DNA of 64,000 nucleotides from Bacteroidales bacterium (GCA_017427985.1 JAFRRS010000013.1:4565-68564); one strand, 5' to 3'; positions 2,075 through 18,300 are shown, counted from the first letter of the stretch. Numbers and translations are program-made. The notes: generated from the sequence alone by a model not told the origin.

Positions 2075-2109
2075 AACTTCTAACTAAAAACTCCTAACTT
2101 CTAACTAAT
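2075..2109. repeat. heptanucleotide-periodic spacer AACTTCT AACTAAA AACTCCT AACTTCT AACTAAT
   Basis: Five consecutive 7-nt units were read directly. They fill the gap between the stop of the 610-aa gene (2105) and the serS leader. Confidence 0.8.
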
Positions 2110-3937
2110 TAAATCTCACGTCTCCCATGGTCATCAGCTTGTCGAGGTCCACCTTGTCGGGCTGCCAGGCGCGCACGTGAATCAGAGGCTGTGCACCGCG
2201 CAAATCGACAAGCAGGAAAAGATATCCCACATCGCCGTACGACGACGAGAAATATTCCTGTCTGACACGGATTCCGTAGACATCGTTGGTGTTGTTGGCT
2301 CTCGTGAACGCCGTCTCGGTGAATCTCAGCCTGATGTATTCGTTGTTGCCGAAGCACATCGCGAGGTTTTTCATGTAAGTGTCCTTGTCGTATTTAGTCA
2401 GCTCCGCCTCTTCCTTGGTGAGTTTCAGCGTCAGCCTGTCGGGAATCTCGGTCTTTTTCACCAATCGTCCCACGATAATCAGGGCGTCGTCGGAGTAGAT
2501 GCTTTCAAGGTAACGATGGCGTTTCAGCGCGTATGCCGTCTGGTAGTCCTCAAGGAAATTTATGAGGATAAGCCTCGACTCCTCGGGCCATTTCGTCTTC
2601 GAAACGATGTCGTATTCGGCTTGGTCGGAGAGCCTGAATGCCAGCGAGGTCACGACTTTGTTTATAGTGTCGAAGCGGAACACCACATCCTGCGAGAAAC
2701 CGACAGTGTTTTTGAAATCGAACTGCACCGTGATGCTGCGGCAGAGCACTTCGTCCTTGTATTTCAGCAACTTATACTCAGGTTTGCCTATCACCGTCAT
2801 CTTTCCGTAATGCGACAAGGTGTCGAGCATGTTGTAGCCTTCTGTTGAGAAGCAGTCGCGCACCCGTGTGATGTCGCCGCAACGTAAAGCGTTCTCTATC
2901 AACGACATCTTTTCAAGATAAACGTTCTCGGCGACGCTGCGGTTTTTCTCCACCTTGCGCCACGAAGGCGTCTCCTCCTCTTTTTTCACATTCATCGTCT
3001 TTTCAAGGTCGACGGTGTAGATATTATTCGAAAAACGCGGCACTTTGATGAGTTCTATGGCATTGGACACCGCGATGTTCATCTTCTTGGCGTCCTCCTT
3101 GAAGTCGTAGTTGACTTTTATTTTGAAGCTCTTGAGGTTTTTGTCGTGAAGCGTCACAATCAGCTTGCCGTCACGCACCGTGTTCGGCATGTATTTCCTG
3201 CCGTCGTGGCACTCGCAGCGCAGGTTCACCACGTCTTTCCCGACGGTGTTTTTCACCCTCAGTTTCACGATGATGTCTTCGCCCGAGCTCTCGATTCCAT
3301 TTTCTTTTGGAACGATGAAATTAAACGACTTCAAGATGCCGTCATTGCCGCTTATCTTATTTATAAGCCATTCATAATCAATATTTTGAACAAGAATATT
3401 ACCATCATTGTCCTTCACATCGAAACGGAGTTTTTTACCTTGAGGATGCGCGTAGCAAAGCATCAGGCTCCAGTAATACGACTTCAGCGCGTCTTCCAGG
3501 CAAGCCTCCTCCTCCATCTTGACAGCCTTGTTGATATAATTTCTAATATCATTTTTCCTGTCGTTGCACATCGACCTGAAATCCGAGCGTTTTACACATA
3601 TAAGGTATTGATACTGTTCGTCATCCTCGTCTTCGACGACAGCTTTTTGGCTCGATTTCTCCGCCAGTCTCTCCTTGAACGTCTTGACGATGTTTTCGAG
3701 TTGGTTGTCGCCGTTTCCTGGGAGATATATGGCATGCGAGTCGCAGTTTTTGGCGATATTTTCATAAAGACCGTCCATTGCCTTCTCCGTCGCTTCGTCG
3801 GAAGAGCTGCAAATATTGCTGATTCCATAAAACAGCGTGGTGTCATTCTTTATTGCCTCCACCTCCTTCTGCTTCATCTGCCCGAATGCGATGTTCGACA
3901 AAATGGTGATTATCAGTAACGTACAGAGTTTTTTCAT
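2105..3937 (-). CDS. secreted protein of unknown function
   Basis: 610-aa ORF with signal peptide MKKLCTLLIITILSNIAFGQ. I recognise no catalytic motif. A -7 box TATTTTTG (reverse complement of 3969-3976) lies upstream. Confidence 0.6.
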   Translation of the reverse strand: MKKLCTLLIITILSNIAFGQMKQKEVEAIKNDTTLFYGISNICSSSDEATEKAMDGLYENIAKNCDSHAIYLPGNGDNQLENIVKTFKERLAEKSSQKAVVEDEDDEQYQYLICVKRSDFRSMCNDRKNDIRNYINKAVKMEEEACLEDALKSYYWSLMLCYAHPQGKKLRFDVKDNDGNILVQNIDYEWLINKISGNDGILKSFNFIVPKENGIESSGEDIIVKLRVKNTVGKDVVNLRCECHDGRKYMPNTVRDGKLIVTLHDKNLKSFKIKVNYDFKEDAKKMNIAVSNAIELIKVPRFSNNIYTVDLEKTMNVKKEEETPSWRKVEKNRSVAENVYLEKMSLIENALRCGDITRVRDCFSTEGYNMLDTLSHYGKMTVIGKPEYKLLKYKDEVLCRSITVQFDFKNTVGFSQDVVFRFDTINKVVTSLAFRLSDQAEYDIVSKTKWPEESRLILINFLEDYQTAYALKRHRYLESIYSDDALIIVGRLVKKTEIPDRLTLKLTKEEAELTKYDKDTYMKNLAMCFGNNEYIRLRFTETAFTRANNTNDVYGIRVRQEYFSSSYGDVGYLFLLVDLRGAQPLIHVRAWQPDKVDLDKLMTMGDVRFN

Positions 3938-4020
3938 GATTGAATATTTTTCAATAACATTTAGAATGCAAAAATAAAAAATAGTTTAGAAAGTTGGTGA
4001 AGTTTTTGATGAAAAAGACT

Positions 4021-4575
4021 TCAGAATCCGTAATCGGCTTGTTCCTCGGCAGCGATTAGGAAGTCGTCCTCGTTCGGAAGGACGTATGTTTTTGGTGTCT
4101 TGGAGCAGGTTTTGAGGAAATAATCATGCAGTTGTATCTCGACTTTCTGCATTGTAGATTCGATTTTTGAAGGAGTGAGCCGGCATTCCCAGATGACAAT
4201 CACCTGCCAGCCGTTGTCCTGCAAAACCTGATAATTTTGTCTGTCCCGCTCCTGGTTTCTGCGTATTTTATTAATCCAAAACTCGCGGTTAGTATTCGGA
4301 ATCTTACAGCAATCCGAGTTCACAACTTCCAACTTCTCATTCCTAACTTCTAACTCGACATCGTGTCCGTGCCAGAAGCATCCGTTGACGAAAATCGCCG
4401 TGCGGTAGCGTCTCATCACGATATCAGGTTTTCCTGGAACTCCTTTAACATTAAGGCGATAGCGGTATCCGTGTTGCCACAGCCATTTGCGAACAAGCAA
4501 TTCCGGCTTCGTGTCGCGAGAATGGATGTGCGACATGCATAGGTGGCGTTGGGTGGGGGTCATTTTGTCGGTCAT
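4021..4575 (-). CDS. vsr: very-short-patch repair endonuclease (Vsr) carrying an extra ~16-aa segment
   Basis: Vsr hallmarks are present: SRDTKPEL, GKPDIV, NGCFWHGH ... PNTNREFW..KI..N..RD ... VIVIWECRL. Its start shares 1 nt with the stop of the upstream nuclease gene. Confidence 0.85.
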   Translation of the reverse strand: MTDKMTPTQRHLCMSHIHSRDTKPELLVRKWLWQHGYRYRLNVKGVPGKPDIVMRRYRTAIFVNGCFWHGHDVELEVRNEKLEVVNSDCCKIPNTNREFWINKIRRNQERDRQNYQVLQDNGWQVIVIWECRLTPSKIESTMQKVEIQLHDYFLKTCSKTPKTYVLPNEDDFLIAAEEQADYGF

Positions 4576-6794
4576 TATACAATGTATTTCATCAACTCGT
4601 CTCCTGTTTCGAAGATAGGTGTTCCATCTATGTAATCAGGTAATAATTTGGCGTCCGTAATTATGTCATGAAGACTAATTCTTGTCGAAAGCTGTACCTC
4701 TTCATCAAAGACGTAACATAAATAATTGCCTTGAGGATTTGGATATAATGCTTTTTTCATTCTTTCTTCATCCAATGTAGCATGATGATGAACATGAAAA
4801 ACGCGATATCCTTTGTTTTCAGCATTATATTCATAAAGGATTACGAATTTAACATCCAAACTTGCCAGATAAGTGGGTGATAAAGCACCGTCACGAACAT
4901 CGCTTCCGCGTTTCTTCAAGCGGACATTGTAAAGGTTGGTTCCTTTGTCGTTTTTGCCCATAATCCAATCCAGTTGTTCCTTCGAATGGTAGCAGCCAAT
5001 GAGGAAATGCTGGGTTGGATAGCGTTGAATATGGTGAGTGGTGAGCAGTGACACAGGTTGTATTGCTCTTTCAGGTTGAACAACGGTTGGCAAAACAGTT
5101 CGAGGGTCTTGTCCTAACGAACATTGTTTGCAATAAAAGCCTGTATCAACCAGATTTAGAATATACTCGTTCTCATCATTGTATTTTTTGTCTTTGTCGA
5201 GTGCGAGTGCAAAATACTGTTGTGTATCTGGAATATCATAAGGAGTGTAAACCTTTCCCAACAATTGTTGGAAATTATCTTTTATGAATTCCTCCGCATT
5301 GATTTCTTCACGTGGTGTCATGGCATAGAAATCATACTGCTCTTGGAGAACTTTTTTGATGTTTTCTCGAAATATCTTTCTGATTTCTTGTGTGCGCTCA
5401 CCGGCTCCCAGTACGTAACATGCAAGCACGAAAAGGAAATTGATATTATACGTCTGAAGGATTAGTGTGTCACGGTCAAAGAGTCGATTCTCAAAATGGT
5501 ACGAAATCCTGTGGCTCTTACCATCAATCATCTTCTCCAGTTGTAAATTGGCATTGCTGTAGTTGTTCAGTTGCTCGGCTTGCAGATGTCCGCGAATAAA
5601 GAAATTGGGCGTGATGTTGTAGCCTTCGGTCGTGTTGTCCCGGTATTGCAGGTTTGTCCGCTCAAACGCTTCTGGATCCTGATTAAAGAAATCGATATTG
5701 TATTGGATTACGTTCTTGGCGTACGTGAATTGTTTGTAAATGGAGTCCGGACCAATATCATTGTCATCCTTATAGTATTTGCTGTCACCGATGAAATAGA
5801 TTTGCTTTTTGTCTTCAATCAATGAATTGTCACGATAGATATGGTCGATGATCTTGCCGTCTTTATGTTTCTTAAGTCTATGATCCAGATTGTTGTCGCC
5901 GATGAGCGAGTCGATCATGTCCTCGAACACAAGGTTGAACTCACGAACAAGCATCGCCTGTTCATCCTGATTGTCTTTGCTTTGGACGTATTGGGATTGC
6001 TCGAAAAACGTAAAGAGCAAGTTCCAAAGCTGCACCATCTCATCCGTGAAATACTTACGTCGGTTCTGCCTGAGGACACGTACACCTTTGCCACTTTCTA
6101 TCATGGATTGGATATTTTCGGGTTTGAGCAGCTCATACCCAAAAGCAGGACGGACATTGAACTTGAATTCTTGTGCCAAATAGTTCAATACCGAGTAAAA
6201 TAGCACTATCAGTTCTTCATCAAAATTGATGTCTTTTTGTTTGGTGTGCGGATTGAGATACACTGGAACTCCGTTTTGAATCAGTGCCTTGGTCTTTGAG
6301 ATGGTTTTCTGCCAGTGTATCTTGTTTTGTCCGGAGTGCTTGAGACGGGTAATATAAGTAAATAGGCTCTTGTGTTCCTTGTCGAATTTCAAGAGTGAAA
6401 GGACAATGTCTATCATCGTTTCATTACTCGGACCTTGGTGGGAAACCACGTTTTGCATGATCTCCGCTTCGTCACTTGCCTTGTCCTTGCGTTGAAAATA
6501 GAGTTTAATGGCTCGATATATCCACACGGAAAGACTGAAGACGTTGGCCTTGTGCTCCTGTTTGAGATTGTCAAAATCGATTATCTCTTCCAGTTCATAT
6601 TCGCCGAAGGCTTTCCCGTAAATGATAAACACTTTCGGCAGAATAAACACCGTATCAGGGATTTTGCGCGAAAGGAAATAACCGACATAGGGTATCTTGG
6701 CTTTCCCATCGCGCATCTCCGTGAAATAGTGCGGGTCGAGTATGATGCTCAACCTGTCTTTATCATAGCCGTATTGCTCTATCAGTATCTTCAT
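4575..6794 (-). CDS. McrC-like / LlaJI R2-type restriction endonuclease subunit
   Basis: 739 aa, with a 4-nt ATGA overlap to the upstream McrB-like gene. It has a PD-(D/E)xK-type segment IYFIGDSKYYKD (D-x-K-Y as in McrC). The large size and gene order match LlaJI-type R2 proteins, as far as I remember them. Confidence 0.65.
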   Translation of the reverse strand: MKILIEQYGYDKDRLSIILDPHYFTEMRDGKAKIPYVGYFLSRKIPDTVFILPKVFIIYGKAFGEYELEEIIDFDNLKQEHKANVFSLSVWIYRAIKLYFQRKDKASDEAEIMQNVVSHQGPSNETMIDIVLSLLKFDKEHKSLFTYITRLKHSGQNKIHWQKTISKTKALIQNGVPVYLNPHTKQKDINFDEELIVLFYSVLNYLAQEFKFNVRPAFGYELLKPENIQSMIESGKGVRVLRQNRRKYFTDEMVQLWNLLFTFFEQSQYVQSKDNQDEQAMLVREFNLVFEDMIDSLIGDNNLDHRLKKHKDGKIIDHIYRDNSLIEDKKQIYFIGDSKYYKDDNDIGPDSIYKQFTYAKNVIQYNIDFFNQDPEAFERTNLQYRDNTTEGYNITPNFFIRGHLQAEQLNNYSNANLQLEKMIDGKSHRISYHFENRLFDRDTLILQTYNINFLFVLACYVLGAGERTQEIRKIFRENIKKVLQEQYDFYAMTPREEINAEEFIKDNFQQLLGKVYTPYDIPDTQQYFALALDKDKKYNDENEYILNLVDTGFYCKQCSLGQDPRTVLPTVVQPERAIQPVSLLTTHHIQRYPTQHFLIGCYHSKEQLDWIMGKNDKGTNLYNVRLKKRGSDVRDGALSPTYLASLDVKFVILYEYNAENKGYRVFHVHHHATLDEERMKKALYPNPQGNYLCYVFDEEVQLSTRISLHDIITDAKLLPDYIDGTPIFETGDELMKYIV

Positions 6795-8470
6795 TTAGAG
6801 GAAACGCCCAAGTAATCCATGAATTGTTGTAAGGTCTGCGTTGCTGCTTCTTCATACAAGTCTTTGAATATGAATTTGCTTGTCTGCTCTTTGTCGTCAA
6901 TGGTTGTTTTCTTGTAGAAGAAGTATTTGTTGTTCTCCGTTTCGTCACGCAGCACTTCATACCAAAGATAGAACATCACCTTGCTCTTGAATTCCTTTTC
7001 ATCCACAGAGTGCTTGATAAAGAAGTTTCCCAATTGTTTGTCCTCGCTCTGGGTGAGGTCAAAAATCCTCTTGTTGGCTTCTTTTATAAAGTCAACCCAG
7101 GGATAAGCCTTGTCTCCGATGGTTATTTCAAATGTGCCTGACTTGATATCAGTAGCATAGTTAATAGGGACATACTCCCATTCCCAACGGCGTTTAAACG
7201 CGCTGTCCATGGGAAACAGGCTTTGATCGGAGGTATTCATGGTGGCGAGAATATTCAGGTTAGCGGGCAAGCAGAGTTTTCCGTCTTTAATGCCTTCTGA
7301 ATCCTCTCCCAATTTGTCTATGAGATAGTTTGCCAAGTCTTTGTCTGCTTTGATTTTGTATTCAGAAACTCCACCTTTTCTGTCCAACAGTTGGAATAAG
7401 TCGCCGAAGATTTGTGCGCAGTTCCCGCGGTTGATTTCTTCAATGACGAGATAGGTTTGCTCTGTTGAATGGGTGTAAGCATAAATGTAGGCGTCTGTAA
7501 AGGCTTGCGGAACGAATTCATACACAATCTCCTCATCTTTGCCGGTCAAGGTCTTTTCCTCTTTGGACGTCGGTTTCATGGTAGGCTTGTAGCATCCCAC
7601 AAAAGAAGCATAATCCGTATCCGGATGGAAAGTTGTACGGAAAACATTGGGCAAATCTCTTTCTTCACCACTGTCTAATAGTTCCCCTGTTTGTTTCTTT
7701 ACTTCGTGGCTTTTGCCTGTGCCTGGGGCACCGAAGAAGATTTGCTGGAGAGGAGAATCTATCTTTGTTGTTTTCATGATAGATGGATTGTTAATAGTGT
7801 TAAATAGAGAATGAATATCGACATTAATTAATTGGCATACATCTTCATCAAACTCAACATAAGATGTGTCCGCTTGGTTAACATCATTAGTATAAATCGC
7901 ATCACAATAATCTGAAGTAAATAATGTATTCAGCGCACTTTTTATACCGTCCATATTCTCTTCAGGAATCTGTTTAAATCGAAGAAGCCAAACAATAAAA
8001 GCCAATCTTAACTCAGAAGAACCCAAATAAAAAGAAAAGCAATCATTTAGGTAATCACCCCGATATATTAACACTTGGTCTTGAATGTCCATGACAGGCT
8101 TCCACCCTGAACGTTTGGGGTATAAAAAAGTATTGTATGGGTTTGTTTTTGAATCTTTTACAGATGATTGGGAATAGAAATTGCTGCCACAATCAAAGTC
8201 TCTCCCATTTTGAGAAATACTCAAGAAAAAGTCTTTTGTGCAGTAGTCTTCATTAATTTTCACTATCTCTCCGACATGTGATGCAAATTCATCTCTATTG
8301 GCGGATAGTTTCAAATCGCAATTCTGGCTGTGATTTTTATAAAATAAGTCCAGAGCCGATGCGTATTTTAAGGCACTGACTTTTTGTGTAAGTCCTTGCT
8401 GTTTTTCAGAATCTATGCCAGAAAGCAACTTATAAGCATGTAATACTGTTGATTTTGCCAAATATGCCAT
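6791..8470 (-). CDS. McrB-family AAA+ GTPase (LlaJI R1-type) with an unassigned ~235-aa N-terminal domain
   Basis: Walker A FFGAPGTGKSH is present, along with EEINRGNCAQIFGDLFQLLDR. The McrB signature MNTSDQSLFPMDSAFKRRWEWEYV is also there. Confidence 0.8.
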   Translation of the reverse strand: MAYLAKSTVLHAYKLLSGIDSEKQQGLTQKVSALKYASALDLFYKNHSQNCDLKLSANRDEFASHVGEIVKINEDYCTKDFFLSISQNGRDFDCGSNFYSQSSVKDSKTNPYNTFLYPKRSGWKPVMDIQDQVLIYRGDYLNDCFSFYLGSSELRLAFIVWLLRFKQIPEENMDGIKSALNTLFTSDYCDAIYTNDVNQADTSYVEFDEDVCQLINVDIHSLFNTINNPSIMKTTKIDSPLQQIFFGAPGTGKSHEVKKQTGELLDSGEERDLPNVFRTTFHPDTDYASFVGCYKPTMKPTSKEEKTLTGKDEEIVYEFVPQAFTDAYIYAYTHSTEQTYLVIEEINRGNCAQIFGDLFQLLDRKGGVSEYKIKADKDLANYLIDKLGEDSEGIKDGKLCLPANLNILATMNTSDQSLFPMDSAFKRRWEWEYVPINYATDIKSGTFEITIGDKAYPWVDFIKEANKRIFDLTQSEDKQLGNFFIKHSVDEKEFKSKVMFYLWYEVLRDETENNKYFFYKKTTIDDKEQTSKFIFKDLYEEAATQTLQQFMDYLGVSSK

Positions 8471-8472
8471 AA

Positions 8473-9687
8473 CTATTTCTTTTTAACTTGTATATGATTC
8501 AATAAAGCCATTGCAACGACCCATGCCATAACGGGAGGAACGGCATTCCCTATTACTTTATATTGTGATTGTAGAGGTATTGCATTAAATCTAAAATTAT
8601 CTGGGAAAGATTGAATTCTTGCACATTCTCGTACCGAGTAACGCCTGTTTTCTACAGGATGTGTAATGCCACAATTTTCTGGCTGTGCAGAAGCTGTGAT
8701 GGTACCATTTATTTCACCAAAAGCAAAACGTCTGAAAAATTTCGGTGCATGATATTTCTTGGGATCATCCGCTATTTTCTTAAAACGAGGTGATAGTTTT
8801 TCGTATGGAATATCCTTCCACGAACGTCCTTCAAAAACAACAGAAGGTAATTCATTTTTGGAATACCCTTCATGAAACAATTCCATAGCCTTTTGTCCAT
8901 GTTTGCAGCCGCCAATTAATTCAACAGTATTTTGAGTAGTAACACTATATTCCCAGACGACATCGTCATTTTGTTCATGAACCCCCTGTAATATCCGACC
9001 CAAAAGAAGTTCTTCGTCTTTCCCTGTTAATGTTGACGGAACATTGTTCTTTTGAACCACTTTTAATAATAAATTGAAATCGAATGGCTTCAAATTCAAT
9101 TGCTTATCAATGCCAATTATGAGAACTCTGTATCTTTGTTGTGGAACGCCATAATCACTTGAGCAGACGAGTTTTATGCTTACATCGTAGCCCAACGCTT
9201 CCATTCTGTTTTGGATTTCCTGTGGGACTGTCCTTTCCCCGTCTGGCATTTTCGAAGAGAGAATACCTCTGACATTTTCAAACAAAAATGCCTTAGGGCG
9301 TTTATTTTCATCCGCCTTGGCTCGTATAATTCGTTCACATTCTTCAAACAAGGTTCCTCTCCCATTGGCATCATTAACGCCTTTTCTGCTTCCTGCATTA
9401 GAAAATGGTTGGCAAGGGAATCCTGCAAGCAAAATATCAAAATCTGGAATTTGTTTTGCATCCACATTTCGAATGTCTTCCAACAGACACTTTGCGCCAT
9501 CGTTCACTAATAAAGGATTTGCATTATAACACTTACACGCATCAATATCAAAGTCGTTTGCAAACACAATTTTTGTATTCAATCGTTTATAATCTTTCCC
9601 TAAAAAGGAAAAACCTCCTGCAAAGCCTAAATCAAGACCCCCGCAACCGGAAAAAAGGGATGCAATTTTATATTTTTTCTTGGACAT
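8473..9687 (-). CDS. DNA (cytosine-5)-methyltransferase (MTase 2)
   Basis: Motifs read: I LFSGCGGLDLGF, IV GFPCQPFS, VI FENVRGI, VIII QQRYRVLIIG, IX SVRECARIQSFPD, X IGNAVPP. Confidence 0.9.
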   Translation of the reverse strand: MSKKKYKIASLFSGCGGLDLGFAGGFSFLGKDYKRLNTKIVFANDFDIDACKCYNANPLLVNDGAKCLLEDIRNVDAKQIPDFDILLAGFPCQPFSNAGSRKGVNDANGRGTLFEECERIIRAKADENKRPKAFLFENVRGILSSKMPDGERTVPQEIQNRMEALGYDVSIKLVCSSDYGVPQQRYRVLIIGIDKQLNLKPFDFNLLLKVVQKNNVPSTLTGKDEELLLGRILQGVHEQNDDVVWEYSVTTQNTVELIGGCKHGQKAMELFHEGYSKNELPSVVFEGRSWKDIPYEKLSPRFKKIADDPKKYHAPKFFRRFAFGEINGTITASAQPENCGITHPVENRRYSVRECARIQSFPDNFRFNAIPLQSQYKVIGNAVPPVMAWVVAMALLNHIQVKKK

Positions 9688-9733
9688 AATTATTTGCCTT
9701 TTTTGCTAACTTTAAATTGTTGTATCACAACTT

Positions 9734-10642
9734 CTATTTCAGTAATTTGGAGAAAACGTCTGAATACTTAAGAATATTCTTTCTGATCTCCTTGATATCT
9801 TCATCATTAAAAGTTTTATCTCCTTTTTTCGTTATAAGAACTTCCTTCCCTTCCACTACTTTACTTACACAATGTGCCAATTGATTCCTGATTTCAACAA
9901 TTTCTGCCATATAGTCTTCAAAGAAGTTCGCGCGAGTAGGAGAATATAATTCTTTTGGGATTATATAGTTAACAGCTTTCGCCATTTGGGCTGATTCCAT
10001 ATTAGGTATTACTTCTTGTATCGGTATGCTTTTCCATTTGTGATAGCAAACCTTCTCCTTTTTACCACATCCATCCAAAGCATTCTTTATTCTTTCTTCT
10101 TGTTTTCTTGTTATATGATCGTGAAAAGTTTTTATTAGAATGTCTGTCTCATTCTGGACATAATATTTGTTTATCAAATCTAACATTATACCATCTAATT
10201 CGCTCACTTCAGCCATCACGAGCCCACGTAAATTATTCAAATCTTGAACTTTTCGAATGGTTGTCTGAATAACTACTTTTATCTTGTTTAAAAACAAGTC
10301 TTTATCTCGCCCCGAAAAATAGACACCTTCCAAATCCAAAGCTTGAGCTTTTTGTTTGATCTTTTGAAGCCCATCGGCAGAATAGAACACAACATCCGTA
10401 TAAATTTCTTTGTCTCGGATATTTTTTATCAGTAAATCTCCCGAAGGTTCGGTTTCAAGGTTTAAATCCATTAAAATGAGATCGTAGTTATTATATTGGA
10501 TTGTATCATCTTGTTTGGAATACAAATCCCAATTTAATACCAAACCATAGTCTCCTTCAACAATCTCTTTAAGATCGTCTTCTATGGATTCAGCCCAATC
10601 CGAATCATTTTCAACCCAAAGTATCTGATATTTTAATCTCAT
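9734..10642 (-). CDS. receiver (REC)-like protein with a C-terminal helical HEPN-like domain (R252-N-Q-L-A-H257)
   Basis: The N-terminus reads ILWVENDSD ... DLILMD59LNL ... VVFYS88A, which fits a CheY-like fold. The C-terminal ~160 aa is all-helical and carries RNQLAH (nt 9872-9889). A 2-nt gap separates it from the upstream kinase-like gene. Confidence 0.55.
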   Translation of the reverse strand: MRLKYQILWVENDSDWAESIEDDLKEIVEGDYGLVLNWDLYSKQDDTIQYNNYDLILMDLNLETEPSGDLLIKNIRDKEIYTDVVFYSADGLQKIKQKAQALDLEGVYFSGRDKDLFLNKIKVVIQTTIRKVQDLNNLRGLVMAEVSELDGIMLDLINKYYVQNETDILIKTFHDHITRKQEERIKNALDGCGKKEKVCYHKWKSIPIQEVIPNMESAQMAKAVNYIIPKELYSPTRANFFEDYMAEIVEIRNQLAHCVSKVVEGKEVLITKKGDKTFNDEDIKEIRKNILKYSDVFSKLLK

Positions 10643-10644
10643 AT

Positions 10645-13218
10645 TCAGAATATTATATCTAATTTTAACCCTTTTCCTTTGTTATTGTTTTGAGAACGAT
10701 AGGCCGTATCAATAGAAATAGAGCCTTTCAATTCTTTTTCAACAAACATTTTAGCATTAAACAACCCCAACCCAGATCCTGACGTTGTAGTTACTCCTTT
10801 CTCGAAAATATCCTGTTGATTTTCTAAACTATTTGCAATGCCATGTCCATCATCAAAAATGCTCATTTCAATTTGACTGCCCTTTTGAGAAAACACAACA
10901 TTGAAATGACGAGCTCCGGCTTTGATGGAATTAGAAAGAAGATTGTCAATTAATAGGTTTAACTCTAAAGGACGAAACTTCATAATGCGTTTGCAATTGT
11001 TTGTTTTACAAATGAGATTAATTTCTTCGTAATAATCCGGAAGCACGGATGTCAAATACTGATTTACAAACTCCACAATATCTGCGTCCAAAGATTCTCC
11101 TTCCACGTTAAAATTGGCTTTTGTGGCAAATCTTGAAATGGACAGCACCTTTCTATTTGCCTTGGAAATACGCTCCAACGCTTTAGTGAGATTACCTTTA
11201 TCTATTGTACCCTTATACAACTGTTTGATGATACTGTCCAAAGAATTCTGGATCGTATGCGCATTCAATCTGATATCGTGATGATACTTGATAATTCTAT
11301 CTTTATCGAGATTATCTACCGATTGCAGGAAAAGATTTTGTTTTGTTTTTTGATCAAGTTTTTTCTCTGCTTTTTTTCTCTTTTCTTCTTCCTCTTTTCT
11401 TTTCTGTTCAGCTTCTTTACGAAGCAATTCTTCTTCCCGTCTTTTAAGCTCTGCTTCTTTTGCTTGCAATTCTGCTTTTCGTTTTGCCTCGGCTTCTTCC
11501 TCTTTTTTCCTCTCTGCCTCTATTCTTTTAATTGTTTCTTCTTGGGCTTTGCGTTCAGATTCCTCTCTCTTTTTCTCCGCTTCGATGGCTCTTTGTTCAG
11601 CTTCCTCTTTTTCTTTTCTGAGTTTTCTTATATGTTGTTTTGCTTCGTCGATGCTCAGAAGCATATTTTCATCATTTGTGCTTTCAGCGATTTTCTCAAG
11701 ATCGTTGAGAAATTGAGGTTTTATGTTGTCAATCTCTTCTGGATCAGACAGAATATTTGCAAGATCTTTGTTGTAAGAGACGATTTCAACATTTTTATCA
11801 CGAGTAAGGGTTTTTATGAGTTGAATAAAATCTATCTTACTTCCAATGCTTGAATTAATCAAATAATTGGGATTGTCGTTCTCCTTATCATTTTCGAGTA
11901 GTTCTTTTCTTCTTTCCAGAGCTTCATTGGCATCTTTAAAATATTCTTTTTTCAAAAAAGCTTCGCCCCAAAGCACACCAGAAACATATCTCTCCAATCT
12001 TCTATGAGCAACTTCGAAAAGATTAAAAAGTTGTTGTGAAGTTTGGGTTTCAATCAATCCTCCATCGCGACTTGACACCTCCTTCAGTTCCTCAACATTA
12101 TCTGTCAAGACATCAACCCTGCCAAACAAATCACGTGTTCCAAGAAAACGATTATGTCCTTGTTGTGCACGGTAATCGAGCCCCCAGCTGTCATCTCCGG
12201 TATTGCCAAATGGCATTATCCTAAATCCATTTCTGAATAAAAAAACCGAACCATAATTAACAGGTTCAATGCCCATTAATCTGGTAAAATTATTTTTTGC
12301 AGAACGGTTTAGGAAATAGAGATTGATACTAACATCCTTCAGTTTGTCAAAAGAATTGTTTTTCTCATGAATAGTGTACATCTCGACCCCGCGATCGGTA
12401 AGTGTTGTGGTAATGTGATCGGGAGACAATTTCACATCTATCTGGGTCGTTTTTAGATCAAGAATGCTTGTTATACTATTTTTTAAAATCCCATTGACCA
12501 ACTCTCTTTCGTGTTTGCCTTTCTCAATACAACTCTTATCCTCAGCGAGCTCTCTATTGCACTTTATTTCGATGCCGAAATCACTCGTTTCCGCAAAAGG
12601 ATTGATTAATTTTTCAAGAGAATGCTTGAGATCCAATAAACGTTTCCTGTTCCAAGGCATTTTTTCATCATTCAGCCTTTTAATCTCAAGAATAGTTCCG
12701 TGTGTCTCTTTTTCAGGAAAAATCGCATTAGAAGTAGTTAAGGTATCGTGTCCTACATTAACATTAGCAAATTCTAAATTCTGGTCAATTTCGAAATCGG
12801 TCCAATCAACTTGAATAATTTCAAGCGTGTTTGAAGAAACACTTTTTGTCTTTAGTAATAATTCTTTGCCCAATCGATCACATGAAAAACGCCCAATACC
12901 TTTGGCTCCCGCATAATGACGCCTGATTTTATCTCTATATGATGTTTGTTTGTCATCTGAATCGTTATCTTCAGTACCATCCTTCTTAGCTGAGTACCCT
13001 AAAAAAAGCCATTTCTTTTTTATATCTTTTAAAGACATTCCCTTGCCATTATCTGCAATAATAATTTTGTCGTCAAGGAATTCTATTTCCACTTTTTTTG
13101 CGTAAGCATCATAGGCATTTTTCACCAACTCAAATATGGCCACATTATCATTGATAATTAAATCTTTACCAACAAGATCTTTTAAAGCCGAACTAATTTT
13201 AAACTGCAGCTGTTCCAT
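10645..13218 (-). CDS. dual-GHKL protein: N-terminal MORC/MutL/Hsp90-class ATPase, E/K/R-rich helix, C-terminal histidine-kinase core
   Basis: N-terminal motifs: ELVKNAYDA, ADNGKGM, GAKGIGRFS. Residues 531-622 are almost pure E/K/R/A/Q. The H-box-like segment is YHHDIRLNAHTI (aa 645-656). The kinase core has N-box DNLLSNSIKA, G1 DDGHGI and G2 GSGLGL. No TM segment or signal peptide is present. Confidence 0.65.
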   Translation of the reverse strand: MEQLQFKISSALKDLVGKDLIINDNVAIFELVKNAYDAYAKKVEIEFLDDKIIIADNGKGMSLKDIKKKWLFLGYSAKKDGTEDNDSDDKQTSYRDKIRRHYAGAKGIGRFSCDRLGKELLLKTKSVSSNTLEIIQVDWTDFEIDQNLEFANVNVGHDTLTTSNAIFPEKETHGTILEIKRLNDEKMPWNRKRLLDLKHSLEKLINPFAETSDFGIEIKCNRELAEDKSCIEKGKHERELVNGILKNSITSILDLKTTQIDVKLSPDHITTTLTDRGVEMYTIHEKNNSFDKLKDVSINLYFLNRSAKNNFTRLMGIEPVNYGSVFLFRNGFRIMPFGNTGDDSWGLDYRAQQGHNRFLGTRDLFGRVDVLTDNVEELKEVSSRDGGLIETQTSQQLFNLFEVAHRRLERYVSGVLWGEAFLKKEYFKDANEALERRKELLENDKENDNPNYLINSSIGSKIDFIQLIKTLTRDKNVEIVSYNKDLANILSDPEEIDNIKPQFLNDLEKIAESTNDENMLLSIDEAKQHIRKLRKEKEEAEQRAIEAEKKREESERKAQEETIKRIEAERKKEEEAEAKRKAELQAKEAELKRREEELLRKEAEQKRKEEEEKRKKAEKKLDQKTKQNLFLQSVDNLDKDRIIKYHHDIRLNAHTIQNSLDSIIKQLYKGTIDKGNLTKALERISKANRKVLSISRFATKANFNVEGESLDADIVEFVNQYLTSVLPDYYEEINLICKTNNCKRIMKFRPLELNLLIDNLLSNSIKAGARHFNVVFSQKGSQIEMSIFDDGHGIANSLENQQDIFEKGVTTTSGSGLGLFNAKMFVEKELKGSISIDTAYRSQNNNKGKGLKLDIIF

Positions 13219-14494
13219 GTTGTAGCATATTTAATAAAACTTCCCCCGCCAATTCCGCAAATAAAGGCGGAATGGCATTCCCAATTTGGGTGTAACGGGG
13301 TACTTCCAACTTGCGCATCTTGCCGCCAGTGGTATATTTCTTTTTAATCTCATACCAATCGGGAAACGATTGGATACGGGCACATTCACGAACGGTCATG
13401 ATGCGAGGTTCTGAATAGTGCAAATAGTCATCTGGACTGCCGGTAATGGTCGGAGAGACCACATTGGAATCCAAAATGGTGATGCCACGCTGCTTGATGC
13501 CCCATTGCTCACGTGTCTCTCCGTCAATTCGTTTGCCACGTTGCGGATATTCAGATAGCAAGCGTTTGTAGCAATTGATTTTATCTGGTGTTTGTTTGGC
13601 AAAACTGTGGCTATCTGCTATTCCATGCGTTTCTGGATAGTCGCCTCGCATCAACTTTTGGTATGCCGTCGGTTTCTTCTTGCCATATTTTCCGGAATAA
13701 AAGCCTTTGCGATCTGGTGTGGGTTCTTCTCCGTTGGATCGAAGCAAGTCAGAAATTGCGTCCTGCAAAGTGTTGGTGGACTTTAAGCCTTTTTGCGCCA
13801 GAAACGCATCTCGATTGGCTTTTAACAAACCTTCGAAACAATCAGGCGTTCCTAACTCTTTTCGAATTCCAACAAGAATAAAACGCTTGCGACGTTGAGG
13901 GACACCATACTCTGAAAAATCAATCACATGTGGTTTCACATTGTAACCCAAATCTCCCAACCCACGAATCACTTTGAGGGAATAGGGTTCATTCTCGGAA
14001 GAAGCCGATTTCCCTTTGTCGAAAGCATAAGTGAAGCCTTTCACATTCTCAAAAAGGATCATTTTAGGTCTAACTAAGTCGATGAATTTTATATATGAAA
14101 ACACCAACTGGTTTCTTACATCTTCTTCAACACGTTTGCCAGCCATAGAAAAACCTTGGCAAGGCGGTCCGCCAGCCACTAAGTCCACGTTCCCACGCAA
14201 AGATTTCAGTTGCTCCGAATACTTTTCCAATACCTCGTTGATGTCGTGTTCGGTTTTAGGCAGCCATTCCGGCCAATCAAAGTGGTTCTTGTTATCAATA
14301 AGGTTGTATTTTAATGTTTCAAAAGCAAATGCGTTTTTCTCAATAGCGAACAAGCCATGCCATCCCGATTGATAAAGCCCCAAAGACAAACCTCCACAAC
14401 CCGCAAATAGATCTATTACCGTACGAAACGCCAACTGTTTTCCCTTTTCAACAGAAGACAACTTATTATTACTCTTATAGTTAGCGTTTTTCAT
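13199..14494 (-). CDS. DNA (cytosine-5)-methyltransferase (MTase 1)
   Basis: Motifs read: I DLFAGCGGLSLG, IV GGPPCQGFS, VI FENVKGF, VIII QRRKRFILVG, IX TVRECARIQSFPD, X IGNAIPP. The stop overlaps the start of the kinase-like gene by 20 nt. Confidence 0.9.
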   Translation of the reverse strand: MKNANYKSNNKLSSVEKGKQLAFRTVIDLFAGCGGLSLGLYQSGWHGLFAIEKNAFAFETLKYNLIDNKNHFDWPEWLPKTEHDINEVLEKYSEQLKSLRGNVDLVAGGPPCQGFSMAGKRVEEDVRNQLVFSYIKFIDLVRPKMILFENVKGFTYAFDKGKSASSENEPYSLKVIRGLGDLGYNVKPHVIDFSEYGVPQRRKRFILVGIRKELGTPDCFEGLLKANRDAFLAQKGLKSTNTLQDAISDLLRSNGEEPTPDRKGFYSGKYGKKKPTAYQKLMRGDYPETHGIADSHSFAKQTPDKINCYKRLLSEYPQRGKRIDGETREQWGIKQRGITILDSNVVSPTITGSPDDYLHYSEPRIMTVRECARIQSFPDWYEIKKKYTTGGKMRKLEVPRYTQIGNAIPPLFAELAGEVLLNMLQHGTAAV

Positions 14495-14526
14495 ATCAAA
14501 ACAGATTTACTATATCCCTTAATTTG

Positions 14527-14534
14527 CAAATATA
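14527..14534 (-). promoter_or_regulatory. Bacteroidota -7 box (TATATTTG) for the defence-island operon
   Basis: The reverse complement of CAAATATA matches TAnnTTTG. It lies 32 nt upstream of the ATG at 14494. Confidence 0.45.
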
Positions 14535-14594
14535 AAAATTATTTTTCAAATAAAGTATACAATTTGTACATTTTTTTCTTAACATCAAAACACC

Positions 14595-14623
14595 AAAAAA
14601 AGCCGACGAGTTTCCTCATCGGC
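14595..14623 (-). terminator. rho-independent terminator of rplU-rpmA
   Basis: The minus-strand RNA reads GCCGAUGAG-GAAA-CUCGUCGGC followed by U7. Confidence 0.75.
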
Positions 14624-14672
14624 CTATTTTTCTGTTCGTTTCCAATTGGGCGAATATGATTCGCCCCTACGC

Positions 14673-14945
14673 TTACTCTGTCACCTCGGCGCTTACCGGG
14701 ATAACTGAAACGTAAGAACGGTTTTCTCTCTTCTTACGGAATTCCACGATGCCGTCTGTCAATGCGAACAAAGTGTGGTCCTTGCCCATGCCGACATTGT
14801 CACCTGGATTGTGTTTAGTACCGCGCTGGCGAACGATGATGTTGCCCGCGATGACTGCCTGTCCACCGAAAACCTTAACTCCGAGTCGCTTGCTGTGTGA
14901 TTCACGACCGTTTTCGGAACTACCAACGCCTTTCTTGTGTGCCAT
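14673..14945 (-). CDS. rpmA: 50S ribosomal protein L27
   Basis: The N-terminus [29 protein letters not shown] is the canonical L27 N-terminus. Confidence 0.97.
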
Positions 14946-14969: not shown

Positions 14970-15281
14970 TTATTCAGTGATGTTTTCAATGCGCACCTTG
15001 CTCAGATCCTGACGGTGGCCGTTGAGAGTCTGGTAACCTTTTCTTCTTTTCTTCTTGAAAACAAGAACCTTGTCTGCTCTCAGATGCTGGATGATCTTAG
15101 CATCTACCTTGGCACCTTCGAGGACGGGGGTGCCTACCCTTGTGCTGCCGTCATTGTCGATCAACAACACCTTGTCGAAGCTGATAGCGCTGTCGACATC
15201 GCCATTCAAGCGGTTGCAGAAGATTTCGTCTCCCTTGCTCACCTTGAACTGCTGCCCTGCTATTTCTACGATTGCGTACAT
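14970..15281 (-). CDS. rplU: 50S ribosomal protein L21
   Basis: The conserved N-terminus MYAIVEIAGQQFKV begins at the internal ATG 15281. A -7 box TATTTTTG (reverse complement of 15319-15326) lies between that ATG and the ORF-track start at 15329. Confidence 0.93.
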   Translation of the reverse strand: MYAIVEIAGQQFKVSKGDEIFCNRLNGDVDSAISFDKVLLIDNDGSTRVGTPVLEGAKVDAKIIQHLRADKVLVFKKKRRKGYQTLNGHRQDLSKVRIENITE

Positions 15282-15366
15282 TAATTTGTATTTATATTTT
15301 TTCAAATTTTTCGGACTGCAAAAATACAACTTTTATTAATACACGCAACAATTTTCTGAAATTAAT

Positions 15367-18300
15367 TTATCTCACCACAATTTTTTGTGTTTGTTCGTTT
15401 AATTTCAAAATGTATACGCCAGTTTGTAAAGACGTTTCAGGAAACGTCTCCACCCCATTTACGCGCCTGCTTGCAATCATGCGCCCCATCACATCGAAGA
15501 TTTGCAGCTCGCCTTCGCCTGTGATAATTATTTCAGCACCATTTTGATAGGCAAAATGCCCCTGCAGAGACGCAAAATTTTGCGTCTCTGCAAACACGAT
15601 TATAAACCTTTCTTGTCTATCGGTTGGCGAACCGATGAAGGTGTAGCGGTTGTTTTCGGTTAAATCAACAACAACATCTTCTAATCTATCGATTAATTTT
15701 ATGTCCGGTAGAGACGTTTCCTGAAACGTCTCACCCAAACGCGAAAAATAAGACGTTTCAGGAAACGTCTCTACGGAAATGGTATATTGTCCCATTTCTT
15801 TCGCCTTGAAATTCAGCGGAATCTCGCCCTGGCGGCTGCTAGAAACCATAGCGTAATCCTTGCCGTCTTGCGGGACGTATAATTTTGTGCTGCCGTCGAA
15901 GACCTGCAATTTCTCCATTGTTTTCTTGCTGTCGAAACGCACTATTGCGCGGTCGATGACGCTGCCACGGTTTCCTTTGCTGAGGTTGATGACTACCTGT
16001 CCTGATTCAGATTTTTGACCGCTGCCTTTGCCTGGCGCTTCGGTGGTGAATGTCAGCGTCTCACCGTCTTCGTCCGCGTGAACGAAGATGCCTTCCATAG
16101 CTTCAACATGGTAATCAGCGCGTTCAGCGAGTACAATTTCGCTGCCGTCGTCGTTCATAACATAGAAATCGCGGTCGATGTAAGCCGTTTCAGCAAACGG
16201 GTTGCCCACGAGGTTCCAGCCTTCCATTTCAGCACCCGGTGTCTTGGTGAGGGTGACCGTACCATCACCGCTGTAATGCTCGCCGTTGAAGGTGAGCGTC
16301 ACATCTTCGCTGTTGGCATAGAGATAGCCTCTTCCCTGCTCAAGGTCGAAATGATAGTGGTCGGATTCATCTGCCTTCCAGTTTTCCCATTCCGCATCGG
16401 CGGCTTGGTTGAAGCGGTATAGGTCGTAGGTGTTTTTGGTGAGGCCATTCACATCTGTTGGGAAGACGTCATTAGCCAAAGGCGAAGCGATGAGGTTCCA
16501 GCCGTCATTGCCATCGGGAGTGTAATGTGCTATGTCGAGAGTGACTGTTTGTTGGGATTCAACTTTCTTGTAAAGCGAAAACGATCCGCCAGTATTTGTT
16601 GTAGAGCAATCGAAACCTATGATCTGTCCGTAAGTATTGTGATATCTAAGATAAGGATAGCTTCCACCGCACCTGAAATCGTAAACGGATGTCCCCTCCA
16701 CCGTCCAGAGACCAAAGCCATCGTTATGGTCATTTGCATTTTCAACTAAATCAACCTTGTAGCAAAAATAATATGCTGCGTATTTTTGGGCTTCAGCGCT
16801 GTAGATAGTCCAACGGTCGTCATTTGGGGCGATGTGCCAAACAATGTCTGTTTGGTCTGTAGTAATCACGTCATCAATCGCAGTAACATTCGTATATTGG
16901 AATACACGGTTCATTAACATGCTGCTCATGGCAGCGCCATCTTTTACAATCAGATAGTCGCCTTCAACAAGGTCTCCGCTGAATAGTTCATAATGGTCAC
17001 CAGTTGGAGTGCCAGGCTCCACAGTGGCACTGACAGTCACGTTGGCATCGGGCATCACGAAGGAAAAAACGCCGTTGTCAGGCTCGATGTTGTAGTCGTT
17101 GCCGCCGTAAGAGAGGGTGGCTGAGGTGAGCTTATAGCCTTCTTGTGCGCCCAGCGTGACGGTATATCCGACACTGCTATAGATGTAGGTGGTATTGCCG
17201 TCGTTATATTTAATGGCATGGTTGCCAAAGCCGATGGCGGTAATGCCGCTCACGTTGTAGATGGTTTCCTCGCCTTTGAGGATGACGCCCTCGCCGAGAG
17301 TGATGGTGCGGGCGCGGCGAGCGCCGTCAATGTCGTTGCCCCTTACACCGCCAGGCACTATGGCACTGGTGGTGTTGTAGTAGTTGTTGGTGTAAAAGCA
17401 CTGATACATGTTACCGCCAATTATTGCGCCACTACTCTCATCGGAGATGACGGCAGTGCCGGTGTAAAGGCAGTTACAGACGATGGTATAGCAATCGTTG
17501 TTATAGAGTTCCGTGTTGTTGCCTACGATGCCGCCATACAAACGGCTAGCCGTTGACTCCACTCTGTTTTCGATGACGGTAGCGCCACTGACACATCCGA
17601 CCACTGAGCCCAGGTTATAGCCCGCGATGCCGGCGTGGCGAGGTGAAACGTCACCACCGGCATAGATGTTGACGCTATTCTCCACGCGGCAGTTATAAAT
17701 GATCCCTGTGTTGAGACCCACGATGCCGCCAACACTAGCTCTCCCAGCGAAGGTACAGTCGGTGAGGGCAACGTTCCTAACGGTAGCCGTAGTGTTATCG
17801 GTATCATAACCAATACGGCCGAAAAGACCGACATTTTCGTCGTTCCAGTTAACCCAGATGCCGCTTATGGTGTGGCCGCCGCCGTCATAAACGCCATTGA
17901 AAGTGTTTGCTAATTGGCGTCCGATTGGGACGTAGTTGTTTTCTGTGCCGTCATAAACCAGGTCGACTGTCTGGAGGAAGAACTTGTCGCTGTAATCGTT
18001 GCCTTCATTGACCTTGGTTGCCAGCCTATCCAAATCAAGGGTTGTTCTTATCAGGAAGGGGCTTTCAGCGGTACCATCACCGCTCCATGGGGCAATTTCG
18101 ATGATGGCTGTAACGGTGACATCCTTGTCGGGCATGTCGAAGGTGTAAACGCCGGCAGTTTCGGTTACAGCGACATCGTTGTTGTTTGAATCTTTCACGC
18201 TGAAACCGGCAAATGCGTAGTCATCGGGTGCAGTGCCGGTGTAATCGAGGGTTAGCGTCTGTGTGGCGCCGCTGAAGATAGGGTTGTTGCTACGACGCAT

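Follow-up and report, generated by a model that had tools for sequence, protein, structure and literature searches.

A composite island of methyltransferase-linked genes with a putative histidine kinase–receiver pair at a variable locus beside rplU-rpmA in a rumen Bacteroidales bacterium

A seven-gene block behind rplU-rpmA

The window analysed here is a 64,000-nt stretch from a rumen Bacteroidales bacterium (GCA_017427985.1, JAFRRS010000013.1:4565-68564; genome G000, 2.49 Mb in 27 contigs). Directly behind the ribosomal-protein genes rplU and rpmA it carries seven genes on the minus strand, numbered here along that strand (Table 1). Genes 1–3, referred to as the triad, encode a 5-methylcytosine (m5C) DNA methyltransferase, a paraMORC-type GHKL ATPase with histidine-kinase domains and a receiver protein with a HEPN-like domain. 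Genes 4–6 resemble a restriction-modification (R-M) unit related to LlaJI and McrBC, and gene 7 encodes a Vsr endonuclease.

A sequence-only reading of the window had described these genes as an island acquired right after the rpmA terminator. The corresponding empty site is present in the congener G020, in which the 610-amino-acid (aa) gene and rplU-rpmA align to the window but lie just 53 nt apart; blastn alignment leaves window positions ~3979-14667 without counterpart there. The inserted block is bordered by the T-run of the rpmA terminator on one side and by the -7 box of the 610-aa gene on the other. Strains with an identical ribosomal protein L27 and other cargo at the same place, described below, agree with this picture. 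In the open reading frame (ORF) listing of the window, seven minus-strand ORFs fill the rpmA-side block, with junctions of -20, +2, +46, +2, -4 and -1 nt along the minus strand, and all coordinates and spacings are exactly those noted earlier.

The intrinsic terminator of rplU-rpmA is strong and lies where it had been placed. It occurs at the matching position in every congener examined, with a differing stem sequence, and belongs to the backbone rather than to the cargo. The Bacteroidetes-type -7 box TATATTTG that had been proposed to drive the island is likewise present. Relatives of the triad in other contexts have unrelated DNA upstream, yet a TAnnTTTG box stands in each.

The ORF listing and Pfam revealed no integrase or transposase among the ORFs of the block, and a search for direct or inverted repeats at both borders found none above chance; the longest direct repeat common to the borders is an AT-rich 10-mer, a length reached by 8% of shuffles. 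These searches bear out the earlier remark that mobility genes and flanking repeats are missing. An integrase-mobilised genomic island was considered as a candidate, and it fails on both points.

Table 1. Features of the inserted block and its flanks (window coordinates)
Feature	Position	Strand	Remarks
Inserted block	3986..14605		About 10.6 kb by comparison with the empty site in G020; blastn and boundary alignment
Gene 1, m5C DNA methyltransferase, 431 aa	13199..14494	minus	PF00145 E 1e-56
Gene 2, paraMORC-type GHKL ATPase-histidine kinase, 857 aa	10645..13218	minus	Predicted from Pfam, NCBIfam and alignment
Gene 3, receiver + HEPN-like domain, 302 aa	9734..10642	minus	Putative phosphorylation-gated RNase effector
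Gap between genes 3 and 4	9688..9733	minus	46 nt; seam between modules, from homology ends of relatives; weak palindrome inside
Gene 4, m5C DNA methyltransferase, 404 aa	8473..9687	minus	PF00145 E 1e-67; 2-nt gap to gene 5
Gene 5, McrB-like AAA+ GTPase, 559 aa	6791..8470	minus	AAA_5 E 1e-8; McrB NF008457 E 1.5e-8
Gene 6, McrC/LlaJI.R2-like nuclease subunit, 739 aa	4575..6794	minus	PF09563 RE_LlaJI
Gene 7, Vsr T:G mismatch endonuclease, 184 aa	4021..4575	minus	PF03852 E 9e-33
-7 box TATATTTG	14527..14534	minus	Bacteroidetes type; 32 nt upstream of gene 1 ATG; candidate island promoter
rplU-rpmA intrinsic terminator	14600..14625	minus	11-bp stem + T-run; -19.8 kcal/mol
rpmA	14673-14945	minus	Upstream flank, same strand as island
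rplU	14970-15329	minus	Upstream flank, same strand as island
1461-aa protein with type IX secretion system (T9SS) sorting domain			Upstream of rplU-rpmA in the window; points to the Bacteroidota as host phylum
-7 box TATTTTTG of the 610-aa gene	3969..3976	minus	Conserved in the empty site
610-aa backbone gene	2105-3937		No known family; downstream flank, serS beyond

The triad encodes a methyltransferase and a predicted two-component pair

Gene 1 contains the motifs FxGxG, PCQ, ENV, QRR and GN. The gene 2 protein is laid out as a GHKL ATPase (HATPase_c_3 in Pfam, residues 25-146), a middle domain, a coiled coil rich in glutamate and lysine, a DHp domain with His647 and a histidine-kinase CA domain (HATPase_c, residues 751-841). 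Its N-terminus matches the N-terminus of the BbrUII/HgiDII restriction enzymes (NF050001, E 1e-18) and also MutL and sacsin, and residues 639-834 align to the DHp and CA domains of ZraS. Sequence searches of the PDB gave kinase and REC matches only.

Conservation was assessed in 44-sequence alignments of the kinase and the receiver proteins. In the kinase, E30, N34, D37, H647, N763, G816 and G818 are invariant, as are D56, G58 and G60 of a DxGxG motif (56-60). Another five residues, N759, D789, G791, G793 and G814, recur in at least 90% of the sequences. The N, G1 and G2 boxes are kept, as are a G-rich loop at 104-110 and an acidic residue right after His647. In the receiver protein, D59, R252, N253, A256 and H257 are invariant, and T82 and S88 are also kept; D59 lies at the end of beta3 and S88 at the end of beta4. 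The DHp histidine, the N, G1 and G2 boxes and the phospho-acceptor aspartate of the REC domain, residues on which a two-component phosphorelay would depend, are therefore all retained in the predicted proteins.

For gene 3, Pfam gives a weak Response_reg match and no assignment for the C-terminal half of the full-length protein. In the AlphaFold model (pLDDT 85), a helical domain comes after a (beta-alpha)5 REC domain. Foldseek with the full model returned REC domains only (TM about 0.76-0.83), and at the level of the model the REC fold of the N-terminal domain is confirmed. Modelled alone, the C-domain is mostly alpha-helical (pLDDT 92). It contains an Rx4-6H motif of the HEPN type, R252-N-Q-L-A-H257, of which R, N, A and H are the invariant residues. 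A scan of the C-domains of 37 members gave matches to RiboL-PSP (8, best 1e-7), MAE_28990 (6), Swt1 (5) and Abi_2 (4), all among the five most frequent families, and also to DUF4145 and Apea. Altogether six HEPN-type models match members of the family, five of them among the eight most frequent. On the basis of the motif and of sub-threshold matches to hidden Markov models, we refer to the C-domain as HEPN-like.

The triad is separable from the downstream genes

Triad loci were found via gene 3 homologues; 42 loci were tabulated, with 38 from GTDB-representative genomes. The order of methylase-1 orthologue, kinase and receiver is kept in all 42. The methylase-1 orthologues are 50-82% identical in all but one locus (L062, about 30-39%), and receiver identity goes down to 27-35%. 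The hosts include Bacteroidales, Treponema, Fibrobacter, Patescibacteria, Holosporaceae, a gammaproteobacterium, Methanosarcina and an Aenigmarchaeote. The triad often occurs by itself, on Alistipes-like contigs beside integrases, and a Vsr gene is near the triad in about 12 of the 42 loci. The receiver protein family comprises 427 clusters at E <= 1e-3, and kinase relatives number in the thousands. Within the order, the profile of the receiver C-domain was found in 6 of 401 sampled genomes, each of another genus, showing a sporadic distribution. A pattern scan of IMG/VR for the receiver protein found no relative.

The closest triads, with receivers 93-94% identical, lie in unrelated genomic contexts and are followed by other genes. 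Their DNA is homologous to the window over 14426-9715 and then not again until 7752-4693, and homology to triads in other contexts stops at 9715 or 9669. Because the homology of relatives breaks off at the 46-nt gap between genes 3 and 4, we regard this gap as a seam between modules. These comparisons indicate that the island is a composite of two separable modules, genes 1–3 and genes 4–6, plus Vsr, and not one unit. A truncated m5C methylase start follows the triad in two relatives (L079:10909-11020 and L083:10957-11094), reading MPNKK-stop in L079 and forming a 45-aa ORF opening MPKKKYTFIDFF in L083. It is a remnant of the 5' end of the second methylase, and suggests that the window preserves an ancestral junction of triad and methylase 2, which was overwritten later.

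The sequence-only reading had divided the island at this gap and had suggested that a small palindrome in it may be an operator or internal control point. The division stands, as the seam of two modules; the control point finds no support. The palindrome, GTTGT-gat-ACAAC, is present at 9719-9731 as described. It forms a weak 5-bp hairpin of -3 to -4.8 kcal/mol, equalled in stability by 9.6% of shuffles, and is broken in one close relative, L083. On folding energy and conservation we rejected it both as an operator and as a terminator. The gap holds no TAnnTTTG box and no terminator, and the tight gene junctions are conserved in relatives, so transcription as a single operon is plausible.

Genes 4–7 resemble a LlaJI-like restriction unit with a Vsr endonuclease

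The downstream half had been read as an m5C methylase with McrB-like and McrC/LlaJI-like partners, in agreement with the matches of genes 4, 5 and 6 to PF00145, McrB NF008457 and PF09563. The gene 5 protein also matches the PADLOC model REase_II (E 2e-44), and its sequence contains the Walker A motif GAPGTGKS and an EEINRGN...FGD signature. Over residues 241-559 it shares about 95% identity with the homologue in L079, while the N-terminal ~240 residues are unrelated; this N-terminal domain of about 240 aa presumably reads DNA. Gene 4 gives way to a D12-class adenine methylase in a relative whose motor is 83% identical, and the neighbouring methylase in L079 is of the D12 adenine class, so that methylase class and McrB N-terminus are swapped together. 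Such a joint exchange is expected of a methylation-sensitive LlaJI-like enzyme and not of a methyl-dependent Type IV enzyme. By analogy with these systems, genes 4–6 would cut an unmethylated target in a GTP-dependent manner.

The match of gene 6 to PF09563 is marginal (25.4 bits versus a cut-off of 23.6), covering profile positions 82-321 of 365. A D-S-K motif lies at residues 337-339 within IGDSKYYK, and in relatives gene 6 keeps its synteny with the McrB-like gene. A single match to gene 6, unannotated and from Pedobacter, turned up in a plasmid collection. The C-terminal extension of ~170 aa (residues ~570-739, window 4575-5090) has no family match, and the L041 homologue aligned just to query residues 1-568.

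Gene 7 scores well above the cut-off of TIGR00632 (141.8 versus 97.85 bits). A tblastn search of the genome found no other Vsr, and no m5C methylases besides genes 1 and 4. The start of vsr can be placed in two ways: read as 184 aa, the gene overlaps the preceding stop by 1 nt, and on identical contigs a gene caller places a 180-aa start 12 nt downstream. Both the LlaJI/McrBC-like R-M unit and the Vsr are ordinary.

The locus is a strain-variable hotspot

At least five different cargoes follow rpmA on metagenome contigs whose L27 is identical and whose upstream T9SS gene is the same. One contig (L085) is 100% identical to the window; in the others, homology breaks at window 14624, 14521, 13106 or 12872. 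L091 is 99.85% identical across rplU and rpmA up to the terminator (14624), and its cargo after that point is wholly different (L091:780-8614). It comprises an AAA_15/21 ATPase with DUF3226, an m5C methylase with a HgiDII-like 654-aa protein that has a single GHKL module, AAA_5, Fic, and a DUF2357/PDDEXK_7 (McrC-like) gene. Three contigs (L086, L089 and L090), which diverge at 14521, carry a different set of methylase, kinase and receiver. L087 and L088 diverge at 13106 and rejoin at the McrB motor and the McrC-like gene (90% DNA identity), without the second methylase. L084 has the first methylase in common (93% aa identity), and diverges inside the kinase gene at 12872; beyond that point come other small proteins, an Mrr-like gene and a HaeIII-type R-M system.

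In the sister alleles, two small genes stand instead of the REC-HEPN gene (L084:12111-13429, L087:9737-11135 and L086:10181-11430). The first encodes a REC-like protein (ILVIDD...SDFDL). The second encodes a protein of 210-233 aa with a conserved GHG...C pattern and no Pfam match; the pattern recalls caspase-fold proteases.

Two further congeners vary at this point. In G009, serS comes directly after rpmA, and G012 has an unrelated 2.6-kb insert (L022:2884-5321) encoding a 450-aa PEGA-domain protein and a 360-aa protein. We considered the G012 insert as a second defence cargo and rejected it, since it encodes PEGA-domain proteins.

The interval that separates the rpmA terminator from the promoter of the following backbone gene is a strain-variable hotspot. 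The acquisition mechanism had been left as unclear. Mobility genes and repeats are still missing, but the mechanism is no longer wholly unclear: the mosaic breakpoints indicate cassette exchange, and because they fall within genes common to the strains, exchange and acquisition probably proceed by homologous recombination and not by mobility genes of the island's own. The locus provides a clean natural example of a defence hotspot beside a ribosomal-protein operon, in which methylase, kinase and effector parts swap at intragenic breakpoints, and should be useful for studying the co-evolution of cognate kinase, receiver and effector sets.

Comparison with known systems

Bellieny-Rabelo et al. 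(2021; PMC8011034) described, computationally, clusters of a C5 methylase, a HATPase_c_3-HEF_HK-HATPase_c protein and a Response_reg_2 protein, often with Vsr or HNH_2. The family is framed there as signalling and response to environmental cues, with no mention of HEPN, phage or abortive infection. The triad has the same gene order, from C5 methylase through a HATPase_c_3...HATPase_c protein to a receiver, often with Vsr or HNH_2 near. A bona fide HEF_HK/Response_reg_2 cluster in this order (L039, at G130:C1:1333000-1350000) encodes a methylase of 341 aa, a kinase-like protein of 992 aa, a receiver-like protein of 533 aa, an AAA_15/21 ATPase of 594 aa and a Vsr of 140 aa. Gene 2 shows homology to the L039 kinase-like protein over its N-terminal 400 aa (25% identity, E 7e-22). 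The HEF_HK model PF19191 matches L039 at E 2e-29 but finds nothing in the window kinase even at E <= 10, nor does it match the relatives. Response_reg_2 (PF19192) has no match in gene 3, in 32 relatives or in the whole genome, and exceeds its cut-off in 5 of 201 genomes of the order. Moreover, the receiver of the described family, of ~530 aa, is unrelated to the 302-aa gene 3 protein with its classical REC and HEPN-like domains (hhalign probability 0.1%). Because the two models are unmatched and the receivers are unrelated while the N-terminal halves of the kinases are homologous, the triad is, on these comparisons, a sister variant of the HEF_HK/Response_reg_2 family. It represents an uncharacterised variant of a computationally described family that is worth an experiment.

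LlaJI, from the Lactococcus plasmid pNP40, has two m5C methylases plus R1/R2. Like LlaJI and McrBC-like systems, genes 4–6 have an m5C methylase coupled translationally to a McrB-like AAA_5 protein and an RE_LlaJI-type subunit, with the specificity domain at the McrB N-terminus, as in gene 5. Unlike LlaJI, the module of genes 4–6 has just one methylase, and its R2 counterpart, gene 6, is 739 aa long with about 370 extra residues and an RE_LlaJI score barely above the cut-off.

Detocs (bioRxiv 10.1101/2023.01.24.525353) is a validated two-component system of anti-phage defence by abortive infection. It combines a cytoplasmic histidine kinase sensor with a receiver-effector, the same signalling logic as proposed here. 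PADLOC gave no match to DtcA, DtcB or DtcC; gene 3 had no match at all, and gene 2 had GHKL-level matches only. The triad differs from Detocs in lacking a stand-alone buffer receiver gene, in its paraMORC GHKL sensor, in a HEPN-like effector where Detocs has a nucleosidase, and in being always accompanied by a dedicated methylase.

Anantharaman et al. (2013; PMC3710099) reported paraMORC-HEPN (Ymh) fusions in R-M contexts and predicted that they act like PrrC/RloC. Such systems couple a GHKL or ABC ATPase to a HEPN RNase in R-M neighbourhoods, as a predicted second line of defence, and the triad has a similar pairing of a GHKL ATPase with a HEPN-like domain. In contrast to the fusions, its ATPase and HEPN-like domain reside on separate proteins, joined by a putative His-Asp phosphorelay. 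The BbrUII/HgiDII-type model NF050001 matches gene 2 at residues 16-190 only, with 67 bits against a cut-off of 550, and unlike these restriction enzymes gene 2 continues into a coiled coil, a DHp and a kinase CA domain. In one allele at the hotspot, L091, a HgiDII-like 654-aa protein with one GHKL module stands beside a methylase. Iyer et al. (2008) noted paraMORC1 proteins with a C-terminal extension co-occurring with HNH nucleases.

A literature search found no paper on a relay from a paraMORC kinase to a REC-HEPN protein; the nearest are the paper on the sister family, the HEPN survey and the Detocs study. In the DefensePredictor study, a figure on predicted systems with domains not yet validated as defensive explains HATPase and REC among the abbreviations of its legend; the two may, but need not, share one system or represent the triad family.

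A proposed function and its alternatives

We favour, at a probability of roughly 0.6, a composite defence island at a hotspot that joins the triad, a LlaJI-like unit and a Vsr and was probably acquired, and is probably exchanged, by homologous recombination. In the triad, the gene 1 methylase would mark host DNA, and the paraMORC GHKL ATPase-histidine kinase would act as a sensor, probably of DNA without the mark and possibly in complex with the methylase. The kinase would autophosphorylate on His647 and pass the phosphate to Asp59 of the receiver-HEPN protein, and the activated RNase domain would arrest the infected cell. In the LlaJI-like unit, the gene 4 methylase would protect host sites, the McrB-like GTPase would read the unmethylated site via its exchangeable N-terminal domain, and the McrC-like PD-(D/E)xK subunit would cut. 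The Vsr would repair T:G mismatches arising from m5C deamination at the sites of both methylases.

More tentatively, we propose that genes 1–3 are a stand-alone methylation-gated abortive-infection system of a kind without a demonstrated precedent, in which a paraMORC DNA clamp derived from restriction enzymes reports unmodified DNA by a His-Asp phosphorelay instead of cutting it. The receiver-linked effector would be exchangeable, a HEPN RNase in the window and maybe, to judge by the GHG...C motif, a caspase-like protein in sister alleles. If true, the triad joins two usually separate fields, the epigenetic self/non-self discrimination of R-M systems and two-component phosphorelay. It offers a compact three-gene test case from an abundant family that reaches archaea, and we found no published experiment on it.

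Several observations weigh against this view of the triad. REC domains of the gene 3 clade have Arg112 where the conserved Lys after beta5 is expected. In Foldseek, the C-domain model has no PDB match at E <= 0.001, and the window C-domain alone reaches HEPN_RiboL-PSP only below the threshold (E 7e-4, 19.9 bits versus a cut-off of 28.4). Alleles with a 93%-identical methylase have kinase N-terminal halves just 37-59% identical, which argues against the kinase itself reading the motif of the methylase; we speculate that sequence recognition may come from the methylase instead, in the manner of Mod in Type III systems. McrB/McrC-like genes are near roughly a quarter of the 42 triad loci, making a coupling possible. 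Finally, a HNH_2 nuclease adjoins about a quarter of the triads, and DNA cleavage may therefore belong to some versions.

The missing structural match to solved HEPN proteins, the Pfam match below the gathering threshold and the neighbouring HNH_2 genes would also suit a C-domain that is not an RNase, with an output by protein-protein signalling or by a DNA nuclease elsewhere, such as the HNH_2 of relatives. We consider this quite unlikely, as R252-N-x-x-A-H257 is invariant (R, N, A and H) in 44 sequences from many phyla, HEPN-type models recur among the most frequent matches of the C-domain, and no HNH_2 was found in genome G000. The McrB/McrC-like genes after the triad in roughly a quarter of loci bear on another possibility, that all seven genes are one LlaJI-type system in which each methylase would modify one strand of an asymmetric site, with kinase and receiver as a built-in regulator of the McrBC-like enzyme. 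The single strand, the tight junctions and the gap without a promoter box point the same way, and LlaJI itself carries two methylases. However, methylase 1 accompanies kinase and receiver in every tabulated locus, mostly without McrBC; the pair of McrB motor and McrC goes with a D12 adenine methylase in L079 and has no adjacent methylase in L087; and it is exactly in the gap that the DNA homology to relatives breaks off. A single system is thus very improbable.

We give equally little credence to the idea that kinase and receiver are a control device of the R-M genes, similar to C-proteins, that times methylase versus nuclease by mRNA cleavage and is not an immune effector. It would account for the position of the pair between methylase genes and for an output domain of RNase type rather than DNA-binding type, and it accords with the treatment of the sister family as environmental-cue signalling. 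Many triads, however, have no restriction nuclease within 10 kb and hence nothing to regulate; the N-terminus of the kinase is homologous to paraMORC restriction enzymes, and the distribution is patchy and located at hotspots. A role mainly as a selfish addiction module is unlikely as well. Loss of the methylase would leave unmethylated sites that trigger the RNase, the segregant would die, and phage defence would be incidental. The R-M-like logic with a tightly coupled methylase, the triads inside integrase-bearing elements of some genomes and the near-identical copies in different contexts would fit such a module. It does not exclude defence, and against it the hotspot otherwise holds defence genes, namely Mrr, a HaeIII R-M system, AAA_15/DUF3226, Fic and McrBC-like genes.

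Composition and minor features of the flanks

The inserted block has 38.8% GC compared with 44.5% for the genome (z = -2.2), and 2.6% of 10.6-kb genome windows are equally low or lower. GC at third codon positions is 30-48% in six island genes versus 56-68% in the flanking genes; in vsr it is 58%, which is host-like. The single 60-nt rows counted in the sequence-only reading are correct (28.3% and 33.3% in the island, 51.7% in the adhesin gene), but they are not representative of the island, whose mean is 38.8% and not 28-33%.

Between the rpmA stop codon and the terminator, at window 14648-14666, we notice a 19-nt palindrome, GGGCGAAT-ATG-ATTCGCCC, which is missing at the orthologous site of G020. 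The genome contains 13 copies of GGGCGAAT-N3-4-ATTCGCCC, which look like a small family of elements resembling repetitive extragenic palindromes. Some 60-90 nt at window ~15281-15369, including the rplU promoter region, have at least 17 other matches in the genome at 75-86% identity and many in congeners. This stretch may be a common promoter or leader, or a dispersed repeat.

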